Shown: positions 28 through 63,250 of the stretch, in pieces
Layout of the letters: each line of letters opens with the position of its first letter
Position numbering within the stretch: the first letter of the stretch is position 1
Origin: Eledone cirrhosa
Taxonomy: Eukaryota
Length of the DNA stretch: 64,000 nucleotides
Assembly (NCBI GenBank): GCA_964016885.1
Contig: OZ024743.1
Span: 101,742,001-101,806,000 of the forward strand
Reading direction: 5' to 3'
The notes under the pieces: model-generated
Seen by the model: the letters and a program-made list of their open reading frames with translations, nothing else
Told to the model about the DNA's origin: nothing
Databases searched by the model: none
Position numbers and translations under genes: made by a program

Positions 28-2787
28 ATGTCGGTTGACAGCCTGCCAAACTACATCCAGGCAATGCAACCCCACATCACTAACACAAGAGAGGTAACAC
101 CACAGGAGCATGAGGATAGAGAAAAAGCCCTCAATGCCCATATGGTGATGTGGACGAATATAATGCAGCCCAACAAAAGGACTGCCAACAACTTCCAGGC
201 CTGGAACAATGACGTGCCGGCGTTGTATGGGCTTCGAAAAGACCATAAAACGGGCTGGGACCCTGTCGCGGGACCACCAACACGGCCAGTCTGTGGGGCT
301 AACATTGCTAGTAACTACAGACTGTCCTACTTCCTCTCCCTGATCATACGCCCCATCATTGAGATGTCCCATCATTGAGATGTGTGTGACAGCACGGAGG
401 ACCTCCTCAGCAGAATCGGCGCGGGTAACCGATCTGGGGACCTAACAAACTGCATAATAGGCAGTATGGATGTTGTGTCCCTGTATCCATCTATTGACGT
501 GGATTTTGCTGTGGAGAAATGCGTAGAAATGATCAGCGAGAGCAAGGTTGAGTTCCGTGTGATTGATACCAGTGAGCTGGGACTTCTACTTAAGCTTACC
601 CATAGTAATAGTTACCTAGACACTTATGACCTTAGCAACCTGTGCCCTACAAGACCAGCAAGAGGCAGACCACCTACCATTACCTCAATGGCCAAGAAAA
701 CCCACACAGATAGATGGAACGTGTGAACCAGAGCCATACGGACACCCGAAAACCACGATGAACTGAAGAAAATGATTGCACATGCGGTAGGGGCCAGCAT
801 AAAATTAACCCTTAAGGAACATATGTTCAAATTTAATGGTAAAACATATGCCCAAGAGGAAGGAGCAGCCATTGGTGTTAGCATTGCAGGCGACATAGCT
901 AACTTATTCATGGTATGGTGGGACAGTAGACTTAAACTTAAACTTAAAGAACAATTAGAAGACAGCTTAACCCTGATAATGTACTCCCGCTACGTAGATG
1001 ATATAAACATCGTAGTTAAGACACCCCCACTAAAGAACAGTCAGGAACTAGAGAAAAACACAATGGAAAGCATCCAGCAAATAGCAAACCCCATCCACCA
1101 GAGCACTAGAGTTACTATAGACTACCCAAGTAGACACCCCAACCATCGATTACCTGTACTAGACACAGAGCTCTGGTTAGATACCATTAACAACCAAAAA
1201 CAAATCCTCCATTCCCATTATGCCAAACCCATGACTTCCAAACATCTGATCCACCGAAACTCGGCCATTTCGGACCATACCAAAATCAACATACTGATTG
1301 CGGATTTGGTACGGGTGATGAGAAATGTGTCCCGCATGTGCAACCCCGAAGAACTAGAGAGACACATACAACACTTCATCCACCGTATGCAGTTCTCTGG
1401 CTACAATCAGAGAGATAGAATCAGAGTGTATAAAGGAGCCAGAACCAAATGGGAAAAAATGGTAAATAATGACATAAATGGGACCTGCCCCTTGTATAGG
1501 AGCAAATTTTGGAATAGAATAGAAAGAACTAGGAACAAGGCCAATAGAATAAACTCATGGTACGATAGCAATAAATACCAGAGTGTAATGTTCATCAATA
1601 CAACCCCTAGAGGCGAACTAGCCTACAAATTTAGAAGGGCCCTAAATAAACANNNNNNNNNNNNNNNNNNNNNNNNNNNNNNNNNNNNNNNNNNNNNNNN
1701 NNNNNNNNNNNNNNNNNNNNNNNNNNNNNNNNNNNNNNNNNNNNNNNNNNNNNNNNNNNNNNNNNNNNNNNNNNNNNNNNNNNNNNNNNNNNNNNNNNNN
1801 NNNNNNNNNNNNNNNNNNNNNNNNNNNNNNNNNNNNNNNNNNNNNNNNNNNNATACTGATTGCGGATTTGGTACGGGTGATGAGAAATGTGTCCCGCATG
1901 TGCAACCCCGAAGAACTAGAGAGACACATACAACACTTCATCCACCGTATGCAGTTCTCTGGCTACAATCAGAGAGATAGAATCAGAGTGTATAAAGGAG
2001 CCAGAACCAAATGGGAAAAAATGGTAAATAATGACATAAATGGGACCTGCCCCTTGTATAGGAGCAAATTTTGAATAGAATAGAAAGAACTAGGAACAAG
2101 GCCAATAGAATAAACTCATGGTACGATAGCAATAAATACCAGAGTGTAATGTTCATCAATACAACCCCTAGAGGCGAACTAGCCTACAAATTTAGAAGGG
2201 CCCTAAATAAACATAATCTCAATATTAAGATAGTAGAAAGACCAGGTACCTCCGTAAAAACACTTATTAGCAAGACATACCCGTTCCAAAGACCCTCATG
2301 TATAGATAAGAAATGTATAACCTGTAAAATAAGCCCCATATTAACTGTAAAACTAGAAATGTAGTGTATAGCATAAGATGTACAGAAGGACAATGTAGAA
2401 ACAAAAATATAGTGTACATAGGTGAGACAGCTCGTAGTATAGGGAAACGAATAAATGAACACTGGCGAGACCTCCAAGATAATAAAGAATCATCTGTGCT
2501 CTAGAAACAAAAATATAGTGTACATAGGTGAGACAGCTCGTAGTATAGGGAAACGAATAAATGAACACTGGCGAGACCTCCAAGATAATAAAGAATCATC
2601 TGTGCTCTACCAACATGCTAAGATAGAACACAGGGGTAGACTAGAGAACATAGAAGTAAAAATAGAATCCACACACAGAAAAGACGCAATGTTTAGGCAA
2701 ATTACAGAGGCAGTAAGCATAAAAGAATTACAACCAAAATTAAATAGAAAATATGAGTGGAACAGCAACATCACAACTTACAATTAA
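28..2787 (+). pseudogene. Disrupted PLE RT/GIY-YIG ORF
   Basis: In-frame TGA at 376-378 and 724-726 (TGG in copy 2), N gap, 1-nt deletions near 2072 and 2335, and a 106-bp tandem duplication (2396-2501 = 2502-2607). Confidence 0.9.
1653..1852. other. 200-N assembly gap with overlapping flanks
   Basis: 1853-2212 repeats 1291-1652 almost exactly. Confidence 0.9.
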
Positions 2788-3085
2788 GGACAAAATGAAA
2801 ACACACACAGGACAAAATGAAAACACACACACACATAGAACAAACAACTTACAATTCAGGACAACATGAAAACACACACAGGACAAAATGAAAACACACA
2901 CACATAGAACAAACAACCAACCAACAATAAATAAATAAATAAATAAACAAATAGATAAATGAACACAAACACACACAGACAACCGACGTGGCGCATGCGC
3001 AAACTGAGCACACAACACACACACAGAAACAAAATGGCGTAGGATAGAAGAAAGGAAAGGCACAGAAACAAAGGAAAGGATCCCC

Positions 3086-3130
3086 AGTCACTGAAGAGGT
3101 CACAGAGTGTGTGACGAAAGGACTATGACT
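3086..3130 (+). ncRNA. Type I minimal hammerhead ribozyme in PLE pLTR
   Basis: AGTCA-CTGAAGA-G-GTCACA(gagtg)TGTGAC-GAAA-G(ga)C-TA^TGACT: stem I AGUCA/UGACU, 6-bp stem II, minimal stem III, CUA triplet. Confidence 0.8.
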
Positions 3131-3352
3131 ATATATAAACAACTATCTGGTTGTGGAACCAACCAACCAACCAGAAATTTATAAGTTTGTAAATTTGTAA
3201 ATTTATAAATTTATAAATATATAATAAATTGAAGTGAAAGCAACTGGTGCGTGTGTTTCTTATTGGCAACATGACCCCCCCAAAGTATAACAATATCGGT
3301 TTCAACACACGATTTCAGATAAAGAATCTTGCTAAACAAATTCAGAAACTAA

Positions 3353-14290
<10,938 letters not shown>

Positions 14291-14933
14291 TATATGTATT
14301 TGTACAGATGTGGATACAAAAAAAGCAAGATGCAAACAAGTCTTTTCCTTGGAATTATGATGAGAGTGGTGTGATTACGTTTCCCAAAATGTAGTTTTAT
14401 TTAACTATTCATTGGAATAGTTGAATAAACTGGGTTAAGTACGTCTGGAGAGGCAAAAAGAGAGATGCGTATTTCGATACCCCACAGGCGTCTCTGTTCA
14501 CATGCTTTCCCTCTCCATAGGTATATTTTACTCGATTTTATTTAGCTGTTAGTTATAGTTATCAAGTGTCCTTTTAGTTATCTGCATTGTGGCGACTACA
14601 TTACGCGATATCTAATATTCATAGATTCATTGTACAGTATACATACGTACCTACATACATACACACGCGCGCCCTGACACACACCCATATATATATATAT
14701 ATATATATAACAATATTCGGCTTAAAAGAGAGTGAGATCAATATTTTGCCTTTGTTTTTAGTTTATTTTTCCTTTTCTTAATACATTAGCTCGATTTGAC
14801 TCTCCACATTAGCCGGAATCTTAAAGTTTTTAGGTTTCTGTATTTCTTTATTTTCTTGTTAGTTAGATTATATCTTTATTTCGCTGCATAATATTTTCTC
14901 AAATTCATAAATGCATTCATGGTGGCTGCATTC

Positions 14934-17830: not shown

Positions 17831-18312
17831 TTCTACTTTTTATTGGAATGAATTAATTTTCTGACACATCTCCAAAAAGAATTTTGATATCAAAGTCATC
17901 ACACTGAATTTGATAATTTTTGGAACCAGTGTCTACTTCTACATGAAATAAAGTAGCAAACAGTTTGAACTTATGAAACCCTGAAAAACACGATCGAAAT
18001 GATATTTATTACGTTCGTAGACCATATTCTTAAAATACTTGAATCCTGTAACTACTAAACTGTGCAGAATTTACCGTTTCTCTCCGCAGTACTTTCGTTA
18101 TTTTTTCTCTTTATTTTTGTTATTTCTGAACACTATATAATTTAATTGAAATTTGTTGAATAAAGATTTATAAAAGTGGAGCAATAAGTGCGATTTCCAT
18201 TTGGAAGCCGGCACTCCCCAAGACTACTGCTTTCTTTCAAACGCCACAATTTCGTTATATATTTCACGAACGAGCTGATTTTTCTTCAAAGCTGTAAATG
18301 TAAGTTATTTAA

Positions 18313-19738
18313 ATAATTGTTTCTTCTTTTGGCACAAGGCCAGCAATTACCCTAGTACATTACTGGAGCTTTATTTTAGCGACCCCCGTAAGGATGAAAG
18401 GCAAAGTTAACCCCGGCGGGATTTGAACTCATAACGCAAAGGGCCATAACTCTATGCCACAAAACATGGTGTCTGACGCTTACCTATACAGCCAAGTTAT
18501 TTAAATAATTGTTTCTACTTTAGGCACAAGGCCATCAATTACCCAGTGCATTACTGGTACTTTATTTTATCGACCCCGTAAGGATGAAAGGCAAAGTCAA
18601 CCTCGGAGGGATTTGAACTCAGATCGTAAAGGGACGTAACTATGCTGGAAAGCATGGTGTCTATGCAGCTATGCGATGTTGCTTTTTTTCGCCCCACCAT
18701 TTTCAAAAAGGCCTCAAAATATCTGCCTAAGAAACCATAAAAAACTCTTCACAACATTTGAAAATACTCTATTTGATCAATACCAGAAGGACGAAAGGCA
18801 AAGTTGGCCTCAACAGAATTCGAACTCAGAACGTAAAGACTCGTAACAAATATCGCAAGCTTTTTTACGTTGATCTAACGATTCTGCCAACCCAACGAAG
18901 TAATAACAGTTTAGGCACAAGGGAAACAATGTTTTGGGGAAGAAGAAAATTAGTTATACCAAACCGAGTACTTAACTGGTACATTATTTTATCGACCCCG
19001 GAAGGATGAAAAGCAAAGTTGACCTCGTGGGGAACTGAACTCAGAACGTAGAAAGTCGTTATTAAGTACCACTAAACCTTTTGTCCGACGTTCTAACGAT
19101 GCTGGCAATCTACCACCGTATCATCAGAAATAATTGTTTCTACTTTAGGCACAAAGCCAGCAATTTAAAGGGGAGAGGAAAGTCTATTAAATCGACCCCC
19201 AGTGCGTGACTGGGTACTTTATTTTATCGACCTCAGTAAGGATGAAATGCAAAGTTAACCTCAGCGAGATTTGAACTAAGACAGTAAAGGACTGTAACTC
19301 TATGTTGCAAATCATATTGTCCGACGCTCTACCGATACTGCCAATCGTCCCCCATAATAATTGTTTCTACTTTAGGCACAAGGCCAGCAATTACCCAGTG
19401 CATTACTGGTACATTATTTTATCGACCCTGTAAGGATGAAAGGCAAAGTCAACCTCGGCAGGATTTGAACTCAGATCGTAAAGGGACCTAACTATCCTGG
19501 AAAGCATGTTGTCCGACCCTCTACCGATACTGCCAATCCACCCCCATAATAATAATGGTTTTTATATAGACACAAGGCCAGCAATTTGAGGGAGGGGGAA
19601 ATCGATTAAATCGATCCCAGTGCGTGACTGGTACTTTATTTTATCAACCCCGTAAGGATGAAAGGCAAAGTTAACCTCGGCGGGACTGAACTCTGAACGC
19701 AAAGGGCCGTAAATCTATGCCACGAAGCATGACGTCCG
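18313..19738 (-). mobile_element. Head-to-tail array of about 7 tRNA-derived SINEs (Meta-domain-like core)
   Basis: Repeated TTGTTTCTACTTTAGGCACAAGGCCAGCAATT..TTTTATCGACCCCGTAAGGATGAAAGGCAAAGTTAACCTCGGCGGGATTTGAACTC; A box TGGCAGTATCGG and B box GAGTTCAAATCC on the minus strand. Confidence 0.88.
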
Positions 19739-21804
19739 AATAGGCAGTATGGATGTTGTGTCCCTGTATCCATCTATTGACGTGGATTTTGCTGTGAAGA
19801 AATGCGTAGAAATGATCAGCGAGAGCAAGGTTGAGTTCCGTGGGATTGATACCAGTGAGCTGGGACTTCTACTTAAGCTTACCCATAGTAATAGTTACCT
19901 AGACACATATGACCTTAGCAACCTGTGCCCTACAAGACCAGCAAGAGGCAGACCACCTACCATTACCTCAATGGCCAAGAAAACCCACACAGATAGATGG
20001 AACGGGTGGACCAGAGCCATACGGACACCCGAAAACCACGATGAACTGAAGAAAATGATTGCACATGCGGTAGGGGCCAGCATAAAATTAACCCTTAAGG
20101 AACATATGTTCAAATTTAATGGTAAAACATATGCCCAAGAGGAAGGAGCAGCCATTGGTGTTAGCATTGCAGGCGACATAGCTAACTTATTCATGGTATG
20201 GTGGGACAGTAGACTTAAACTTAAACTTAAAGAACAATTAGAAGACAGCTTAACCCTGATAATGTACTCCCGCTACGTAGATGATATAAACATCGTAGTT
20301 AAGACACCCCCACTAGAGAACAGTCAGGAACTAGAGAAAAACACATTGGAAAGCATCCAGCAAATAGCAAACTCCATCCACCAGAGCATTAGAGTTACTA
20401 TAGACACCCCAACCATCGATTACCTGTACTAGACACAGAGCTCTGGTTATTTACCATTAACAACCAAAAACAAATCCTCCATTCCCATTATGCCAAACCC
20501 ATGATCTCCAAACATCTGATCCACCGAAATTCGGCCATTTCGGACCATACCAAAATCAACATACTGATTGCTGATTTGGTACGGGTGATGAGAAATGTGT
20601 CCCGCATGTGCAACCCCTAAGAACTAGAGAGAGACACACAACACTTCATCCACCGTATGCAGTTCTCTGGCTACAATCAGAGAGATAGAATCAGAGTGTA
20701 TAGAAGAGCCAGAACCAAATGGGAAAAAATGGTAAATAATGACATAAATGGGACCTGCCCCTTGTATAGGAGCAAATTTTGGAATAGAATAGAAAGAACT
20801 AGGAACAAGGCCAATAGAATAAACTCATGGTATGATAGCAATAAATACCAGAGTGTAATGTTCATCGATACAACCCCTAGAGGCGAACTAGCCTACAAAT
20901 TTAGAAGGGCCCTAAATAAACATAAACTCAATATTAAGATAGTAGAAAGACCAGGTACCTCCGTAAAAACACTTATTAGCAAGACATACCCGTTCCAAAG
21001 ACCCTCATGTATAGATAAGAAATTTATAACCTGTAAAATAAGCCCCCATATTAACTGTAAAACTAGAAATGTAGTGTATAGCATAAGATGTACTGAAGGA
21101 CAATGTAGAAACAAAAATATAGTGTACATAGGTGAGACAGCTCGTAGTATAGGGGAACGAATAAATGAACACTGGCGAGACCTTCAAGATAATAAAGAAT
21201 CATCTGTACTCTACCAACATGCTAAGATAGAACACAAGGGTAAATTAGAGAACATAGAAATAAAAATAGAATTTACACACAGAAAAGATGCAATGTTTAG
21301 ACAAATTACAGAGGCAATAAACATAAAAGAATTACAACCAAAATTAAATAGAAAATATGAGTGGAACAGCAACATCACAACTTACAATTAAGGACAAAAT
21401 GAAAACACACACACACACATAGAACAAACAACCAACCAATAACATGTAAATAAATAAACAAATAGATAAATGAACACAAACACACACAGACACCCGGATG
21501 TGGCGCATGCGCAAACTGAGCACACAACACACACACAGAAACAAAATGGCGTAGGACAGAAGAAAGGAAAGGCACAGAAACAAAGAAAGGAATCCCCAGT
21601 CACTGAAGAGGTCACAGAGTGTGTGACGAAAGGACTATGACTATATATAAACAACTATCTGGTTGTGGAACCAACCAACCAAGAAGAAATTTATAAATTT
21701 GTAGATTTGTAAATTTATAAATTTATAAATATATAATAAATTGAAGTGAAAGCAACTGGTGCGTGTGTTTCTTATTGGCAACATGACCCTCCCAAAGTAT
21801 AACA
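19739..21804 (+). mobile_element. PLE copy 2: 5'-truncated, same family as copy 1, joined to a truncated SINE
   Basis: Closely matches copy 1 from 456 onward, without copy 1's duplications. It has a 13-nt deletion near 20405 between TAGAC repeats and a TAA stop at 20618; the GIY-YIG frame is open at 20657-21391. Confidence 0.93.
21598..21642 (+). ncRNA. Type I hammerhead ribozyme in PLE copy 2 pLTR
   Basis: Identical to 3086-3130. Confidence 0.8.
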
Positions 21805-21836
21805 TTATATATATATATATAATATTATATATATAT

Positions 21837-22517: not shown

Positions 22518-22701
22518 CATACAGGTACACATACATATATGCACGTATCAGTTCAGCGGACGCTTATTATAACGCCGCTTTGTTCGTTTGTAAACAAACT
22601 GAACAGCCTGAATTTTTGCCATACGGTGTTAAGGCAACCACGTCACCTTTTTGTTCAACACTGACACAGGAACGATGTACTAGTTTCAAGCTTGTTAGCT
22701 A
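21837..22701 (-). mobile_element. Retrozyme-like partial tandem repeat (500-bp period including a TA tract, about 1.7 copies)
   Basis: 21837 onward repeats at 22337 onward; each unit carries a minus-strand HHR or part of one; flanked by (TA)n. Confidence 0.65.
22173..22215 (-). ncRNA. Type I hammerhead, core GAAA mutated to TAAA; the copy at 22672-22701 keeps GAAA but lacks CUGAUGA
   Basis: Consensus of the two copies: ATGGTG-CTGATGA-T-AGCT(aaca)AGCT-T-GAAA-C(ta)G-TA^CATCGT; palindromic stem III ACUAGU, GUA triplet. Confidence 0.7.
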
Positions 22702-22915
22702 TTATATATATATATATATATAATATTATATATATATATATATAATATTATATATATATATATATATATATAATATTATATATATATATATATATATATA
22801 ATATTATATATATATATATATATATATAATATTATATATATATATATATAATATTATATATATATATATATATATATAATATTATATATATATATATATA
22901 TAATATTATATATAT

Positions 22916-22984
<69 letters not shown>

Positions 22985-23117
22985 TATATATATATATATA
23001 TAATATTATATATATATATATATATATAATATTATATATATATATATATATAATATTAATATATATATATATATATAATATTAATATATATATATATATA
23101 TAATATTATATATATAT

Positions 23118-23149
<32 letters not shown>

Positions 23150-23749
23150 ATATTATATATATATATATATATAATATTATATATATATATATATATAATA
23201 TTATATATATATATATAATATTATATATATATATATATAATATTATATATATATATATATATAATATTATATATATATATATATATAATATTATATATAT
23301 ATATATATATAATATTATATATATATATATATATAATATTATATATATATATATATATAATATTATACATATATATATATATAATATTATATATATATAT
23401 ATATATAATATTATATATATATATATATATATAATATTATATATATATATATATATAATATTATATATATAATATTATATATATAATATTATATATATAT
23501 ATATATATATATAATATTATATATATATATATATAATATTATATATATAATATTATATATATATATATATATAATATATATATATATATAATATTATATA
23601 TATATATATATATTATATTATATATATATATATATAATATTATATATATAATATTATATATATATATATATATAATATATATATATATATAATATTATAT
23701 ATATATATATATATTATATTATATATATATATATATAATATTATATATA

Positions 23750-23791
<42 letters not shown>

Positions 23792-23797
23792 TATATA

Positions 23798-23843
<46 letters not shown>

Positions 23844-23849
23844 TATATA

Positions 23850-23890
<41 letters not shown>

Positions 23891-23942
23891 ATATTATATA
23901 TATAATATTATATATATATATATATATATAATATTATATATA

Positions 23943-23990
<48 letters not shown>

Positions 23991-24006
23991 ATTATATATA
24001 TAATAT

Positions 24007-24079
<73 letters not shown>

Positions 24080-24121
24080 TATATATAATATTATATATAT
24101 ATATATATAATATTATATATA

Positions 24122-24239
<118 letters not shown>

Positions 24240-24253
24240 TATATATATATATA

Positions 24254-24299
<46 letters not shown>

Positions 24300-24570
24300 T
24301 ATATATATATATAATATTATATATATAATATTATATATATATATATATATATAATATTATATATATATATTATATATATATATATATAATATTATATATA
24401 TATATTATATATATATATATATAATATTATATATATATATATATAATATTATATATATATATTATATATATATATATATAATATTATATATATATATATA
24501 TATAATATTATATATATATATATATAATATTATATATATATATATAATATTATATATATATATTATATAT

Positions 24571-24602
<32 letters not shown>

Positions 24603-24626
24603 ATATTATATATATATATTATATAT

Positions 24627-24658
<32 letters not shown>

Positions 24659-24946
24659 ATATTATATATATATATATATATTATATATATATATATAATA
24701 TTATATATATATATATAATATTATATATATATATTATATATATATATATATATAATATTATATATATATATTATATATATATATATATATAATATTATAT
24801 ATATATATATATATATAATATTATATATATATATATATAATATTATATATATATATATATATAATATATAATATTATATATATATATTATATATATATAT
24901 ATATAATATTATATATATATACATATATATATATAATATTATATAT

Positions 24947-24994
<48 letters not shown>

Positions 24995-25001
24995 TATATA
25001 T

Positions 25002-25043
<42 letters not shown>

Positions 25044-25103
25044 TATATATATATATAATATTATATATATATATATATATAATATTATATATATATATAT
25101 ATA

Positions 25104-25157
<54 letters not shown>

Positions 25158-25260
25158 TATATATATATATAATATTATATATATATATATATATATTATA
25201 TATAATATTATATATATATATATATATTGGAATAAATGCTCTGAAATAGCGATATATATG

Positions 25261-25553
25261 TGAAGATAGACATAGAATATTCGAAAATATTCTGTATGTT
25301 TATAATAAACATTTTGAAGACCTAATCGCTATAGAATAGAATACGTCACGTATTACAATTAGATTCTCGATAAAAGCACTGGATATGTAATCCTGAAGAT
25401 TTCTAATAAGAATGAAACGCGTAGGTTACTTCCCTTGCTTTTATCGTGAATCTAATTGTAATACGTGACGTATTCTATTCTATAGCGATTAGGTCTTCAA
25501 AATGTTTATTATAAACATACAGAATATTTTCGAATATTCTATGTCTATCTTCA
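25261..25553 (+). mobile_element. Fold-back element: 118-bp inverted arms with a hammerhead in the 57-nt loop
   Basis: 25261-25378 is the reverse complement of 25436-25553 (1 mismatch seen); the loop holds the HHR at 25387-25429. Confidence 0.85.
25387..25429 (+). ncRNA. Type I minimal hammerhead ribozyme
   Basis: GTAATC-CTGAAGA-T-TTCT(aata)AGAA-T-GAAA-C(gc)G-TA^GGTTAC; palindromic stem III ACGCGU; weak stem II. Confidence 0.72.
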
Positions 25554-25821
25554 TATATATATATATTATATATAATATTATATATATATATATATAATAT
25601 TATATATATATATATATTATATATAATATTATATATATATATATATAATATTATATATTATATATATATATATATTATATATAATATTATATATATATAT
25701 ATATAATATTATATATATATATATATATAATATTATATATATATATATAATATTATATATTATATATATATATAATATTATATATTATATATATATATAA
25801 TATTATATATATATATATATA

Positions 25822-25861
<40 letters not shown>

Positions 25862-25883
25862 TATATATATATATATATAATAT

Positions 25884-25936
<53 letters not shown>

Positions 25937-25956
25937 TATATATATATATATATATA

Positions 25957-26026
<70 letters not shown>

Positions 26027-26027
26027 T

Positions 26028-26127
<100 letters not shown>

Positions 26128-26363
26128 TATATATATATATATTATATATAATATTATATATATATATATATAATATTATATATATATATATATTATATAT
26201 AATATTATATATATATATATATAATATTATATATATATATATATTATATATATATATATATATAATATTATATATATATATATATATTATATATAATATT
26301 ATATATATATATATATATATAATAATATATATATATATATATTATATTATATATATATATATA

Positions 26364-26402
<39 letters not shown>

Positions 26403-26406
26403 ATAT

Positions 26407-26446
<40 letters not shown>

Positions 26447-26497
26447 TATATATATATATATATATTATATATAATATTATATATATATATATATATA

Positions 26498-26543
<46 letters not shown>

Positions 26544-26610
26544 TATATATATATATATAATATTATATATTATATATATATATAATATTATATATATATA
26601 TATTTATATA

Positions 26611-26650
<40 letters not shown>

Positions 26651-26653
<3 letters not shown>

Positions 26654-26788
26654 GTTTCTACTATTGGCACAAGGCCAGCAATTACCCAGTGCATTACTGA
26701 TACTTTATTTTATCGACCCTGTAAGGATGAAAGGCAAAGTTAACCTCGGCGGGATTTGAACTCAGAATGGAAAGGGCCGTAACTCTCT
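26651..26788 (-). mobile_element. 5'-truncated SINE inside the satellite (duplicate at 28544-28680)
   Basis: Same SINE body as 18313-19738; the two copies appear identical. Confidence 0.88.
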
Positions 26789-27219
26789 ATATATATAATA
26801 TTATATATATATATATAATATATATATAATATTATATATATATATAATATTATATATATATATAATATTATATATATATATATATATATATAATATTATA
26901 TATATATATATATATATATAATATTATATATATATACATATATAATATTATATATATATATATATAATATTATATATATATACATATATAATATTATATA
27001 TATATATATATATATATAATATTATATATATATATATATATATATAATATTATATATATATATATATATATATAATATTATATATATATATATATATATA
27101 TAATATTATATATATATATATATATATATAATATTATATATATATATATATATATTATATATAATATTATATATATATATATATATTGGAATAAATGCTC
27201 TGAAATAGCGATATATATG

Positions 27220-27511
27220 TGAAGATAGACATAGAATATTCGAAATATTCTGTATGTTTATAATAAACATTTCTAAGACCTAATCGCTATAGAATATAAT
27301 ACGTCACGTATTACAATTAGATTCTCGATAAAAGCACTGGATATGTAATCCTGAAGATTTCTAATAAGAATGAAACGCGTAGGTTACTTCCCTTGCTTTT
27401 ATCGAGAATCTAATTGTAATACGTGACGTATTCTATTCTATAGCGATTAGGTCTTCAAAATGTTTATTATAAACATACAGAATATTTTTGAATATTCTAT
27501 GTCTATCTTCA
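27220..27511 (+). mobile_element. Second copy of the HHR-in-loop fold-back element (HHR at 27345-27387)
   Basis: Near-identical to 25261-25553. Confidence 0.85.
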
Positions 27512-27887
27512 TATATATATATATTATATATAATATTATATATATATATATATAATATTATATATTATATATATATATATATATTATATATAATATTATA
27601 TATATATATATATAATATTATATATATATTTATATAATATTATATATATATATAATATTATATATTATATATATATATAATATTATATATATATATAATA
27701 TTATATATTATATATATATATAATATTATATATATATATATATATATAATATTATATATATATATATATAATATTATATATATATATAATATTATATATT
27801 ATATATATATATAATATTATATATATATATATATATATAATATTATATATATATATATATATATAATATTATATATATATATATATA

Positions 27888-27925
<38 letters not shown>

Positions 27926-28176
27926 TATATTATATATATATATAATATTATATATTATATATATATATAATATTATATATTATATATATATATAATATTA
28001 TATATATATATATATAATATTATATATATATATATATATATAATATTATATATATATATATATTATAGATATATATATATATTATATATAATATTATATA
28101 TATATATATATAATATTATATATATATATATATATATAATATTATATATATATATATATATATAATATTATATATA

Positions 28177-28214
<38 letters not shown>

Positions 28215-28237
28215 TATATATATATATATATTATATA

Positions 28238-28312
<75 letters not shown>

Positions 28313-28458
28313 ATATTATATATATATATATATATATTATATATAATATTATATATATATATATATATAATATTATATATATATATATTATATAATATTA
28401 TATATATATATATATAATATTATATATTATATATATATATAATATTATAATATATATA

Positions 28459-28545
<87 letters not shown>

Positions 28546-29293
28546 GTTTCTACTATTGGCACAAGGCCAGCAATTACCCAGTGCATTACTGATACTTTAT
28601 TTTATCGACCCTGTAAGGATGAAAGGCAAAGTTAACCTCGGCGGGATTTGAACTCAGAATGGAAAGGGCCGTAACTCTCTATATATATAATATTATATAT
28701 ATATATATATAATATTATATATATATATATATATATAATATTATATATATATATATATATATATAATATTATATATATATATATATAATATTATATATAT
28801 ATATATATATAATATTATATATATATATATATATATAATATTATATATATATACTATATATAATATTATATATATATATATATATATAATATTATATATA
28901 TATATATATATATATAATATTATATATATATATATATATAATATTATATATATATATATATATATATAATATTATATATATATATATAATATTATATATA
29001 TATATATATATATAATATTATATATATATATTATATATATATATATATATATAATATTATATATATATATATATATATAATATTATATATATATATATAT
29101 ATATAATATTATATATATATATATATATAATATTATATATATATATATATATATAATATTATATATATATATATATATAATATTATATATATATATATAT
29201 ATAATATTATATATATATATATATATAATATTATATATATATATATATAATATTATATATATATATATATAATATTATATATATATATATATA

Positions 29294-29403
<110 letters not shown>

Positions 29404-29408
29404 TATAT

Positions 29409-29441
<33 letters not shown>

Positions 29442-29629
29442 ATATTATATATATATATATATATAATATTATATATATATATATATATAATATTATATAT
29501 ATATATATATATAATATTATATATATATATATATATAATATTATATATATATATATATAATATTATATATATATATATATATAATATTATATATATATAT
29601 ATATATAATATTATATATATATATATATA

Positions 29630-29693
<64 letters not shown>

Positions 29694-29718
29694 ATATATA
29701 ATATTATATATATATATA

Positions 29719-29756
<38 letters not shown>

Positions 29757-30038
29757 TATATATATATATATATAATATTATATATATATATATAATATTA
29801 TATATATATATATATATAATATTATATATACATATATATATATATATATGAAATATATATATATATATATATATATATTTATTAAAATAACAGATTAAAG
29901 TTTAACCAAAGAATCGCTGCTTTCACTCTTAACGGGATCTTCTGAAACTAACAAAGTCAATCTGTAAACGCAGAAGTGGATATTTAAAAAAACGTTGCAA
30001 CTGAGGAAGACAGGAAGACTATACTTTGGTTCGTGGAA

Positions 30039-35189: not shown

Positions 35190-35690
35190 TTGGCAGTATC
35201 GGTAGAGTTTCGGCCCTTTACAGTCTGAGTTCAAATCCTGCTGCGGTTAACTTTGCTTTTCATCCTTATGGGGTCGATAAAATAAAGCACCAGTAATGTA
35301 CTGGGGTTGATTTAATCGACTTTCCCCACCCCCCAAATTACTGGCCTTGTGCCTATACTAGAAATCATTACAAATTACTGGCCTTTTGCCGATACCTGAA
35401 ATCATTATTAGAGTTACGGCCCTTTATGGTTTGAGTTCAAATCCCGCCGAGGTAATTGCTGGCCTTGTGCCAAAAGTAGAAACAATTATTATTATTATCG
35501 GTGGATTGGCAGTATCGGTAGAGGATCGGACGCCATGTTTTGCAGCATAGAGTTACGACCCTTTACGGCCTAAGTTCAAATCCCGCCGAGGTTAACTTTG
35601 CCTTTCATCCTTACGGGGTCGATAAAAATAAAGTACCAGTAATGCACTGGGGTAATTGCTGGCCTTGTGCCTAAAGTAGAAACAATTATT
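35190..35690 (+). mobile_element. Cluster of about 3 tRNA-derived SINE copies and fragments
   Basis: TGGCAGTATCGGTAGAG..GTTCAAATCC..CTTTCATCCTTACGGGGTCGATAAAATAAAG..GGCCTTGTGCC, with (ATT)n tails. Confidence 0.88.
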
Positions 35691-36039
35691 ATTATGATTA
35701 GTAGTAGTAGTAGTAAAAATAGTTTTTGTTGTCGCCTGCAGTGGTTGAACTGGGCTGTTCCATTCCGTGGACAGCCGGGCAATCTTTTCTGTGGATAATA
35801 TTTCTTCACCTACCCTGTTTTTTCAAAACAGAACTGGGTGGCGTCTTTCAAAATAAATGCAGATTTAGCCCTAAGAGCTTAGCGACAGAGAATTATCAAT
35901 CAGATCACCAGGGACTTGGTCGGAATAACCACAAAAGAATATGAAGTTCCAGCAAAGTGTTTTTTTATATTATTGTGAATGAACAAAAATCTTACGGAGC
36001 GGTTTATACACAGGCGTCGAGAACAAATAAACAAACAAA

Positions 36040-49935: not shown

Positions 49936-52155
49936 AGACAAAATATAATGATACATGATATACCCTGAGATGTTAAATGGTTAAGATTTAATCAAGGTAG
50001 TGATTAACCTAATAGAAAGTTTAACATTTATACGCTAATAATGAGAAAATGCGAAAACGTAATAAATTCAATAGAGAATGTATGAGTAAGAAAAACGTTG
50101 CTTAATGTAACATTTATAGAGATTTTAAAATGTATGATACTACTATTTATGTTTATCTAGGAAAACAGTCAATGAGAGCCACTGGAATAGGATATATAGA
50201 GAGGGAAAGATAAGGGGTAATATATGTAGAAGGAGATTTTTTCCGAAAGTTAAACGGTTAAGTTTGAAAATATTTAGTTTATGCTATTTTAGGGTGAAGA
50301 TTCAAGATTTTAGGTTTTTCTTTTTAAATTGCTGGTTATTTATATTTATTAGTTTTGTAAATTATATAAGTGTGTTAACATTTCTAAACTTCTGAATTTT
50401 ATGAGGATAACATTTAAAGGGCCAGCGGAAAGGAAAGTTTACACTGTTGAATATTTTCCTAAATGTAAACTTTACCTAAGATAATCATTGTCAACATATT
50501 TGGTATGTAAATCTTATGAAGTACTTATTGTTAGAAATATTTAAATAACGATTATGTATATAGATATATATTAATTAATGAGCCAGTATATTTTAGGTAA
50601 GTGATAACGAAAATAAAAATAAAATAATAGATTGAGGCATGCTAAAGTTAAATATATACCTATATATAACAGGGTGTTAATGCATTAATTATTCATAGTT
50701 CGAAATAAATAATAATAATCAAGAATTTAGAAGTTAACTAAAAATTATGTATCTATAGAAGAAATAACGCTCGAATGAAAGACACTTCTTTAATAACATG
50801 CCGGAACATTGATATACATAACATAATATTATTAACTTTGATCCATACCATTATTTCTTTATTTCTCTATCTTTATCTTCCTATCTAAGTTTTAAATTTT
50901 AGTTTAATATCCAACCCATACATTTTTACGGAACTTATTTCTAACTGTGAATCTTTCATGTGTTTTTGATCTCTTATTTATAATATGTATGTAATTATAT
51001 TTTATACGTTTTTAAATATACCTACTGCATTTTTATATCCATGATTCAAATATAGAGCAAATATACAAACTATAAATTATTATAGACCTTATTTATATAT
51101 ATACTGTATCAATAATACCTAATTTATATCCATATATACCTCCCTCTATCTTTCTATACATAATTTTTAGTTAACTTCTAAATTCTTGATTATTATTATT
51201 TATTTCGAACTATGAATAATTAATGCATTACACCCTGTTATATATAGGTATTTATTTAACTTTAGCATGCCTCAATCTATTATTTTATTTTTATTTTCGT
51301 TATCACTTACCTAAAATATACTGGTTCATTAATTAATATATATCTATATACATAATCGTTATTTAAATATTTCTAACAATAAGTACTTCATAAGATTTAC
51401 ATACCGAATATGTTGACAATGATTATCTTCGTTAAAGTTTACATTTATGAAAATATTCAACAGTGTAAACTTCCCTTTCCGCTGGCCAGCTAAATCCTTT
51501 AAATGTTATCCCCATAAAATTCAGAAGTTTAGAAGTGTTAACACACTTATAGAATTTACAAAACTAATGAATATAAATAACCAGCAATTTAAAAAGAAAA
51601 ACCTAAAATCTTGATTCTTCACCCTAAAATAGCATAAATTAAATATTTTTTAACTTAACCGTTTAACTTTCCGAAAAAAAATCTCCTTCTACATATATTA
51701 CCCCTTATCTTTCCCTCTCTATATATCCTATTCCAGTGGCTCTCATTGACTGTTTTCCTAGATAAACATAAATAGTAGTATCATACATTTTAAAATCTCT
51801 ATAACTGTTACATTAAGCAACGTTTTTCTTACTCACACATGCTCTATTGAATTTATTACGTTTTCGCATTTTCTCATTATTAGGGTATAAATGTTAAACT
51901 TTCTATTAAGTTAATCACTACCTTGATTAAATCTTAACCATTTAACATCTCAGGGTATGTCATGTATCATTATATTTTGTCTGATGAGGATGTACTCTTG
52001 TACATCCGAAATATGTATAATAAAATGTAATTGATCAAAAGAACATCTATTTTATTAAATATTAATAACTCTGGAAAATTATTTTTCGTAGAGTGCTTCC
52101 AATCTACTGTAAAACTCATTCTTTGATATACTCATTGAATCTTGTTTAACTCTTT
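49936..52155 (+). mobile_element. Non-coding fold-back element of about 2.2 kb: inverted arms of about 825 bp, spacer of about 390 bp, hammerhead plus conserved tail
   Basis: 49936-50760 is the reverse complement of about 51152-51982; the HHR follows directly and the tail ends in (TA)n. Confidence 0.9.
51970..52030 (+). ncRNA. Type I hammerhead with canonical core
   Basis: TTATATTTTGT-CTGATGA-GGATGTAC(tctt)GTACATCC-GAAA-TA(tg)TA-TA^ATAAAATGTAA: perfect 8-bp stem II and 11-bp stem I. Confidence 0.9.
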
Positions 52156-55640: not shown

Positions 55641-56140
55641 CTAAAGTAGGATGATACAGGCTTTATATACCTGTCGCTTCCTGTCTCCCACCTTGAACCT
55701 GTTCACATCAAAAGGGTGGTGACCTAGAATTTGACCTCTAGGTGTCACCCAAGGTTCAAGGCGCGGACAGATTTCGCTACATGTCTATGTAAAACTCGTA
55801 AGGTAGACCACCCAAAGCGGGCACTTAGTGCTTCCCGTCTGTTATCGATTTTTGGTAACAACTTGCATTTCTCACTGGCAGGCCGTCAAGGTAGAAACTA
55901 TCATCCGCCACTATCTCTGTACTCCGCTTACCTCGAACAGTTATGCAATGTGCCACTGAAAACCCGTACACATCTGCTTGGAATCGAGAAGTACGTGCTT
56001 GTTTCAATTCGTCAAAGGCCGAATTGTGGCTTTATTCCCACGCTGCGCCTCTACCACCCGGGCACATCAAACAGCTTTCTTTCCTTCGTGCCTTAGAGTA
56101 CATAAGTAAGCCATATACATAGTAATAATTATTTCTAAAA

Positions 56141-56675
56141 ATTGTTTCTACTTTTGGCACAAGGCCAGCAATTACCCCAGTACATTACTGGTGCTTTATT
56201 TTATCGACCCCGTAAGGATGAAAGGCAAAGCTAACCTCGGCGGGATTTGAACTCAGAACGTAAAGAGCCAAAACTCCTATGCATAATAATAACTGTTTCT
56301 ACTTTTGGCACAAGGCCAGCAATTACCCAGTACATTACTGGTACTTTATTTTATCGACCCCCGTAAGGATGAAAGGCAAAGTTAACCTCGGCAGGATTTG
56401 AACTTAGAATGGCAAGGGTCGTAGCTCTATGCGTGAAAGCATGACGTCGACCCTCTACTGATACTACCAATCCACCACTCCTATGCATAATAATAATTGT
56501 TTCTACTTTTGGCACAAGGCCAGCAATAACCCAGTGTATTACTGGTACTTTATTTTATCGACCCCGTAAGGATGAAAGGCAAAGTTGACCTCGGCAGGAT
56601 TTGAACTCAGAATGGAAAGGGCCGTAACTCTATGCGTGAAAGCATGACGTCCGACCCTCTACCGATACTGCCAAA
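56141..56675 (-). mobile_element. Three head-to-tail SINE copies
   Basis: Same SINE body, separated by CTCCTATGCATAATAATAA. Confidence 0.9.
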
Positions 56676-62351: not shown

Positions 62352-63250
62352 TCATCCCTTGAATCGCAAGAATGTTTTGCAAATTTTGAAGGTGCCAGCT
62401 TTCGCAGACATTTGTAGACTATGAATTAGGGAGCTGCGCTCTTTGTCCGCAAATCCAAGTTCAGTCATACCTTGGTCCAAGCGGGTTGGTATATAACCCG
62501 TAGCTCCAATAATGATGGGTATGAAGCTAAAGGTGTATCTTGGATACTGGATTTGTAAACTCCTCATCAATGGTCCGTAGATGTCCTCCTTCTCCTGTAT
62601 TTTTCTGACAACGTTTACATCAAGTGGGCAGCTGATCTCCACAACAGAACACGTTTTCAATGTGTGGTCCCAAACAACAATATCAGGCCGGTTGTGCTTT
62701 AATTTGGTGGCAGTTTTTATTTTCAGGTTCCACCAGTATTCCTTAGAGCCATCTGTCTCAATATATTTTTCCTCGTTTGTTGTTAATTTTGTTTTCCGAA
62801 GTGCTTTCCAGATGCTTCTAGCTATTCCATTGTGTCTCATGGGGAGGTAGTAGCGAGATGACATTGTTTCGCAGCTGGCAACAATGTGGCTTACATCCTC
62901 GATCTTTGTTTTACATAGCCTACATTTATTGTCAGCTGATGGCCTTCCCCCTTTTGTGCAGCAGATATTTAGTAGGGAGTTCTTGTTCCTGTATTACATA
63001 GAGATATCCCTCAAGGTATGATGTCATAAACTTGTCAGAACTCCATGCCAGGCTTTTTGAGTGGTTTATCCCCTCTATGGTCTGTTTTACGTCTCAAGTA
63101 TCCATCTACAACTTTTTCTGTAAATTGGTCGATTTTTTCATCTTGTTTGAACATTAAATAGGATCTTCCGATTTTTCTGGGTGAGAGATTTATATCAGGC
63201 TTTATTCCATATCTCTCCTCCAGATCAGTGGCTATTCTAATGATATATTT
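62352..63250 (-). pseudogene. R4/Dong-like C-terminus: zinc knuckle plus restriction-like endonuclease
   Basis: CRLCKTKIEDVSHIVASC, RHNGIAR, HNRPDIVVWD..VVEISCPLD..KIQEKEDIYGPL..FIPIIIGATG. Confidence 0.9.

Follow-up and report, generated by a model that had tools for sequence, protein, structure and literature searches.

A hammerhead motif in the loop of a 118-bp hairpin of Eledone cirrhosa as a probable PLE-type insertion of a small retrozyme repeat

Animal non-LTR retrozymes are 170-400 nt long, have a GC content below 50% and are proposed to use PLEs (Cervera and de la Pena 2020, PMC7229834). Their mobilisation by PLEs has been proposed from co-occurrence and from likeness to pLTRs, with the mechanism left open (PMC7229834; preprint 10.64898/2026.07.22.740005). 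Hammerheads of the canonical metazoan type combine a 6-bp helix I, a helix II of about 4 bp and a palindromic helix III of 1-2 bp (Cervera 2014, PMC4209133). According to the same source, so short a palindromic helix III hinders cleavage of the monomer and demands a dimer, and the G10.1-C11.1 pair that closes stem II is highly conserved among hammerheads.

PLE insertions are described as often having an inverted 5'-truncated copy, a one-sided tail of 30-40 bp and a bias for (TA)n targets (Craig 2021, PMC8557442; PMC8969392). In Adineta PLEs, direct and inverted pLTRs share an overlap of 15 bp, the tail length is 31 bp, and palindromes at the inverted junctions are read as self-priming on an antisense template (Arkhipova 2013, PMC3846280). 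In experiments with a purified PLE protein, both target strands were cut and extended, synthesis began at two internal RNA sites at the borders of the tail, and the hammerhead was dispensable for insertion (Frangieh 2024, PMC11167929).

The window, meaning the whole 64,000-nt stretch of Eledone cirrhosa DNA analysed here, contains a hairpin element with a hammerhead motif in its loop. The element is probably a piece, shorter than one unit, of a retrozyme repeat of likely 310 nt, inserted in (TA)n by a PLE reverse transcriptase/endonuclease. Its parts and setting are as follows.

25229-25260, minus strand: one-sided extension (PLE-type tail), 32 nt, non-TA, only on the inverted copy, on the left side
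25261-25378, minus strand: left arm, inverted 5'-truncated copy of the 3' part of the likely 310-nt unit
25379-25435, plus strand: loop, 57 nt, hammerhead plus a short stem I extension
25387-25429, plus strand: type I hammerhead motif of canonical metazoan architecture, predicted cleavage after 25423
25436-25553, plus strand: right arm, direct copy of the 3' part of the unit, ending without tail at a TA run
27188-27511, plus strand: second copy of the whole element, a local tandem duplication with the same junction, 98% identical
22700-29830, no strand: (TA)n-rich tract of about 7 kb with A/T-only runs, holding both element copies; insertion target

The hairpin with a hammerhead in its loop, as an earlier note on this DNA had described it, is real. 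Each arm is 118 nt long, 117 of the 118 positions pair (the single mismatch is 25367/25447), and the type I boxes are complete. The predicted fold of the hairpin RNA reaches -196.3 kcal/mol (z = -31), and none of 200 shuffles is equally stable. The 57 nt that the note singled out as non-duplicated and almost identical with the ribozyme are indeed this loop; both the 32-nt tail and the second copy of the element had escaped it. GC content is 0.30 over tail, left arm and loop (25229-25435) and 5-8% over 24001-30000. Target-site duplications are unreadable in the (TA)n flanks, and no RT or GIY-YIG ORF occurs in the element, its flanks or the 310-nt unit.

The two copies (25229-25553 and 27188-27511) differ 6 times in 325 columns, and their arms carry 1 mismatch in the first copy and 5 plus a gap in the second. 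A 134-nt SINE-like piece is duplicated alongside the element (26654-26787 equals 28546-28679). Because this neighbour was duplicated together with the element, the copies represent one insertion, not two independent ones. The duplication as a whole, 25229-28679, consists of the element, TA sequence and the SINE-like piece, whose two copies are identical, and five of the six differences between the element copies are departures in the second. The SINE-like repeat itself, which presumably resembles an octopus SINE, has many copies in the window, some in tandem (18302-19739, 26654, 28546, 35203-35705, 49290-49516 and 56129-56674). Elsewhere, 3400-14300 consists of about 11 kb of (TA)n interrupted by CA or CAG units. 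A 213-aa frame at 62352-62993 (minus strand) has CxxC, His/Cys and PD..D-like motifs and no Pfam match at E 0.01; it is presumably the C-terminal restriction-like endonuclease of an R2/R4-type non-LTR element.

All core boxes of a hammerhead (CUGANGA, GAAA and NUH), joined by three stems, are present in the loop. A pair-by-pair check gives stem I as GUAAUC/GGUUAC, 6 bp with one G-U; the boxes are CUGAAGA at 25393-99 and GAAA at 25414-17, and the cleavage triplet GUA ends at 25423. Stem II starts with a U-U pair in place of the missing G10.1-C11.1 and continues with UUC/GAA, a fourth pair (U25404-A25409) being possible. Stem III is the palindrome ACGCGU at 25417-22, with 2 bp and a 2-nt loop, which bears out the claim of a type I hammerhead with a palindromic stem III of the dimer type. 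The name minimal hammerhead is a misnomer, since the three helices have the lengths and the palindrome of the canonical metazoan type.

When a strict type I descriptor is applied to dinucleotide shuffles, 20,000 versions of the loop yield no match and 20,000 of the 325-nt element yield 3. The best Rfam match is Hammerhead_HH9 only, with 17.1 bits and E 0.14, and does not reach the gathering score of 52; the HH9 model has a longer stem III than the loop motif. Across the whole window, the best 150 of 278 Rfam matches include no hammerhead and are mostly miRNA-model noise on TA repeats.

Public sequencing runs show that the element belongs to a repeat family. A search with the loop and right arm returned 24 rows from 20 runs and 17 studies under many organism labels, with no RNA run among the matching runs listed, and contigs of four of these 20 runs (X1, X2, X8 and X15) were aligned to 25229-25435. 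Run X1, which may be the window's own source, holds 386 contigs with several variant letters and a summed depth of 1.4e5-5.9e5 over tail, arm and loop, a figure that is not a copy number. The other three runs hold 1-2 low-depth contigs each, which fits traces of a high-copy repeat. The hammerhead repeat is thus an abundant and varied family. Exact patterns from the hammerhead or the arm had no match in the metagenome_contigs and viral_contigs collections.

The order of the parent unit can be read from one 340-nt contig of X15 (record 9). Its positions 1-113 match the arm (25266-25378, plus), 114-186 match 73 nt of the loop side (25435-25363, minus), 187-273 are 87 nt absent from the window, and 274-340 match tail and arm (25229-25295, plus). 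The 30 nt at each of its ends cover 25266-25295, and the contig therefore closes at 310 nt, a closure seen in one contig of depth 34 from one run of unrecorded kind. The native order is therefore upstream sequence, hammerhead, arm, extension and then upstream sequence again, and the family unit is likely 310 nt head to tail (87 nt, hammerhead, arm, 32-nt extension). Either a tandem array or a circular RNA would account for the closed contig, which shows neither directly. A unit of this size is too small for an RT and thus non-coding; as a rarer path, there could still be a longer, ORF-bearing element. Within the window, a 16-nt motif from the native upstream sequence has no match at up to 3 mismatches.

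Further contigs agree with this order. The joint from 25435 to 25378 on opposite strands, present in X1, X15 and X8, identifies loop-to-arm as native. The arm runs continuously into the tail in X15 record 9 (25229-25295), X8 record 12 (25248-25378) and X1 record 1 (25239-25322), which makes the one-sided extension a natural continuation of the arm. At 25252, beside the end of the direct arm, twelve X1 contigs break off into loose letters that finish in a TA run, and X1 loose ends with TA runs lie at 25361 as well. Both arms share a G (and its partner) at 25265, where T accounts for 346k of 404k X1 depth; this shared minority letter points to one template or one subfamily. In X2, record 10 matches the arm at 25266-25365, after which come 120 nt that do not resemble the window; this variant has a different sequence upstream of the arm.

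The contigs also show where the hairpin departs from its parent. In X15 and X8, a single 73-nt piece covers 25363-25435, with 5 and 4 other letters respectively, and only before 25363 do these contigs diverge from the window; the X2 match spans 25367-25435 with 3 other letters. The native upstream sequence leaves the window at the same position in two X1 contigs and one X8 contig, whose loose letters agree, and none of the loose ends listed (8 of 21) suggests a different long upstream sequence. These matches define one further feature.

25363/25367-25378, pairing with the first 12-16 nt of the right arm: native stem, from contig matches of X15, X8 and X2

Judged by these sequences, the native stem of 12-16 bp closes the hammerhead in the parent unit, and the 118-bp arm would only extend it. 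The earlier note placed a breakpoint 8 nt upstream of stem I; there is none there, as the 5' flank of the loop is native over 12-16 nt, and the inversion switch lies somewhere in 25363-25378. X1 depth shows no dip over 25355-25382, and the inversion junction is crossed by none of the 15 contig pieces listed (there are 397 others), in contigs that drop rare forms.

Predicted folding casts doubt on the activity of this ribozyme copy. Energy models penalise hammerhead-type junctions, and their figures serve as comparison, not proof: the minimum fold pairs the hammerhead core with the 3' strand, the hammerhead fold lies 10.2 kcal/mol higher, and the probability of stem II is 0.05-0.07 alone, within the native stem and in the full hairpin. 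The idea that the arms leave the hammerhead free to fold stands insofar as the loop is unblocked, and fails insofar as the active fold is not favoured with or without arms. In the runs, T at 25397 (CUGAUGA) makes up 177k of 246k depth in X1 and also occurs in X2, X8 and X15. An A at 25400, giving a pair at the base of stem II, accounts for 39k of 231k in X1 and is found in X15 too; one loose-end consensus implies A at 25425, which makes stem I fully Watson-Crick. With all three family letters put in, stems I and II rise to 0.89-1.0 in the fold model; with two of them, stem II stays at or below 0.15.

The majority letter of X1 gives U-U at the base of stem II, and no variant with a closing G-C is listed at 2 in 100 in the run contigs, which may make even the parent ribozyme weak. 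It is doubtful that cleavage happens within the hairpin, because a 2-bp stem III needs a dimer and the modelled active fold lies about 10 kcal/mol above the minimum; a loop closed on a 118-bp stem would, moreover, hinder the exchange of stem I strands between two copies. The image of a hairpin displaying an active ribozyme is therefore unsupported, and self-cleavage that leaves a long dsRNA finds no support. In this single hairpin copy the ribozyme is likely weak or without activity, and the insertion was likely a dead end.

The layout of the insertion is that of a PLE. An inverted 5'-truncated copy lies beside a direct copy, with a one-sided tail of 32 nt, an overlap of 12-16 nt and a (TA)n target. 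The proposed affiliation with PLEs and retrozymes is upheld, and the layout is not unusual in the way that had been supposed for retrozymes: the unit is likely a direct head-to-tail repeat, and an inverted truncated copy with a tail is the published PLE layout.

A twin-priming mechanism would give the observed structure exactly. Both target strands would be nicked, and each would prime a cDNA, starting from one or the other of the two internal sites at the limits of the tail. Of the resulting cDNAs, one would run through the arm, the hammerhead and the native upstream 12-16 nt, while the other would copy the tail and the arm. The 3' ends of the two would be complementary at the native stem that closes the hammerhead, where they would anneal and be filled in. 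As the native stem already surrounds the hammerhead in the parent RNA, the loop is where it would come to lie. The parental ribozyme would cut multimeric transcripts into monomers, acting as a dimer. The end of a cleaved monomer would fall 12 nt inside the native stem and might likewise halt the second cDNA at that point. Had the first cDNA simply folded back, the direct arm would carry the tail; it is the inverted arm that does. We infer twin priming from tail polarity in two elements, since the tail is on the inverted copy in both the hairpin element and a PLE at 41979-45345. Antisense self-priming, the explanation given for such junctions by Arkhipova (2013), is possible as well. As the native stem is a defined joining point, junction counts in one assembly would separate the two.

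Nine hammerhead motifs in the window resolve into six insertions, and four of these six have inverted arms (pairs less than 6 kb apart were searched). Those other than the hairpin and its second copy are listed below.

41979-45345, minus strand: 5'-truncated PLE with inverted pLTRs and a hammerhead in each (42085 minus, 45144 plus)
44717-45139 and 43907-44572, minus strand: RT-like frames of this PLE
43430-43906, minus strand: Cys-rich linker and GIY-YIG-like frame of this PLE
45415-45932: near-perfect palindrome with a 7-nt loop (45666-45672), hammerheads at 45599 minus and 45739 plus, and TA-run flanks
49936-51982: inverted-arm insertion, arms of about 820 nt (96%) and a spacer of about 400 nt
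456-3330 and 19739-21830: PLE-like element in two copies (95-97%), hammerheads at 3091 and 21603

The PLE at 41979-45345 has Asn-rich (AAT)n stretches and a tail of about 95 nt on its inverted copy. Its GIY-YIG-like frame is an Atlas lead (score 0.95, family on 32% of cluster members) with no Pfam match. At 49936-51982, a well-paired hammerhead starts at 51981, right where the inverted copy is cut off. The two PLE-like copies with hammerheads at 3091 and 21603 have weak RVT_1 matches and, by eye, a GIY-YIG-looking C-terminus; the first is interrupted by an N gap and contains a duplicated stretch, and no inverted arms were found in either among pairs less than 6 kb apart. Pfam on 15 ORFs gave weak RVT_1 in two and nothing in the rest. 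Spacers between inverted arms measure 57, about 2,970, 7 and about 400 nt, so inversion is general in the window's insertions, and the position of a ribozyme in the loop is not.

The loop shows no likeness to the other hammerhead elements, which agrees with the note's view of a distinct family, and its statement that the parent PLE is not in the window also holds insofar as blastn finds no close parent there. Arm plus tail shows no likeness to four of six regions compared. Local alignment of the arm to five pLTR-like regions on both strands (ten comparisons) matched its last 60 nt to the direct pLTR of 41979-45345 in sense (score 33, 7 of 2000 shuffles). This match spans from the end of that element's hammerhead to TATCTTCA, where the hairpin's direct arm ends. 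Two other scorings gave 10-13 of 2000 shuffles for the direct pLTR, the inverted pLTR gave 9-50 of 2000, and the other three pLTR-like regions gave no signal. The best three of 1,234 window tiles for the arm are pLTRs of 41979-45345; a multiple alignment did not reproduce the register of the match. The arm may thus weakly resemble the pLTR of this PLE, a lead that is borderline after ten comparisons of AT-rich sequence. A 12-nt match of the arm end to the same element in the opposite orientation was dismissed as AT-rich chance.

Other origins of the hairpin fit parts of these data. It might be the extreme 5'-truncated pLTR end of an autonomous PLE, the 310-nt contig loop then coming from pLTR tandems. 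Such an origin would share the insertion layout of PLEs, truncated pLTRs are common, opposite-strand hammerhead pairs 100-700 bp apart occur in Schistosoma (PMC4209133), and the weak resemblance of the arm to a PLE pLTR in the window points the same way. It is nevertheless unlikely, given that the X15 tail rejoins the upstream side of the hammerhead after only 87 nt, that the loose ends listed suggest no other long upstream sequence, and that the hammerhead is canonical and not of the minimal PLE type (PMC4209133). The chance is slim that the hairpin is an amplified transcribed unit of its own, self-cleaving in the loop and yielding long dsRNA or small RNAs. Near-perfect arms, the shared junction of the two window copies and the lack of a dip in X1 depth over 25355-25382 would suit this, but the two copies are one duplicated insertion, none of the 15 contig pieces listed that start in the arm continues past the native stem to reach the loop, the native order is kept in X15 and X8, and the hammerhead fold is costly (10.2 kcal/mol over the minimum), with a stem III loop of 2 nt.

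Long perfect inverted arms in TA sequence also recall a MITE-like DNA transposon with 118-bp terminal inverted repeats, a TA target and the hammerhead as a passenger. This is hardly tenable: one end is 32 nt longer than the other, by sequence that natively continues the arm, contigs of the family lack a palindromic structure, and the loop continues in them into other native upstream sequence. The run contigs largely refute such a transposon, which would have equal terminal inverted repeats at both ends. Lastly, the inversion could postdate the insertion, through fold-back repair in the unstable TA tract, or be a fold-back artefact of assembly or library. Assembly is difficult in the roughly 7 kb of TA repeats around the element, the junction lies at a short native inverted repeat, where fold-back chimeras form, and it is absent from the contig pieces listed of the four runs. 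However, folding back the direct arm cannot produce a tail that only the inverted arm has, the window contains three further inverted hammerhead elements, and each element copy has its own arm mismatches, all of which make an event of this kind very improbable.

With insertion by a PLE machinery as the preferred reading, the hairpin is a by-product of a known insertion pattern and largely an ordinary new family member, and its value is as a footprint of retrozyme movement. A tentative and rather doubtful extension sees the 310-nt unit as a chimera, in which a canonical hammerhead module is joined to the 3' part of a PLE pLTR (with a dead minimal hammerhead). The two RT start sites would be kept in it, much as a LINE tail is kept in a SINE, and its motor would be the PLE family of 41979-45345 or a relative. 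The stem closing the hammerhead, with the 5' end of the cleaved RNA 12 nt away, would fix the cDNA join, giving a genome with recurring hairpin insertions that hold a ribozyme in the loop. If true, this would be direct evidence from an insertion signature that animal retrozymes move by PLE twin priming. A retrozyme-sized unit with a PLE tail, an inverted copy and a TA target is the type of evidence offered by SINE-LINE pairs.

A literature search that covered main texts and few subscription journals found no report of this family or of hairpin-form retrozyme insertions. In the available parts of PMC7229834 and of the preprint by Li et al. (10.64898/2026.07.22.740005), inverted insertions or tails are not described; the word "inverted" is absent from the former and occurs once, in a reference title, in the latter. 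The family resembles animal non-LTR retrozymes in its canonical type I hammerhead, its likely 310-nt unit, its GC content of 30%, its abundance, the lack of any ORF found and the presence of PLEs in the same window. Unlike retrozymes, the hairpin copy is less than one unit long, is inverted and not tandem, and has a stem II without G10.1-C11.1.

The dimer-acting hammerheads of newt, cricket and schistosome repeats, as described in PMC4209133, PMC6155905 and PMC2837043, have the same 6-bp helix I, short helix II and 2-bp helix III with a palindromic loop, and the CUGANGA, GAAA and UH elements are intact. Unlike that type, the loop hammerhead has U-U (the X1 majority) or A-U at the base of stem II and is a single motif closed inside a long stem. 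Compared with PLE insertions, the hairpin element contains no RT or GIY-YIG sequence, and its inverted copy stops short of the hammerhead, whereas the inverted copies at 41979-45345 and 45415-45932 include it. With the PLE insertions described in PMC8557442, PMC3846280 and PMC11167929, it shares a direct copy with an adjacent inverted 5'-truncated copy, head to head, a one-sided tail (here 32 nt), a (TA)n target and a short native inverted repeat at the junction.
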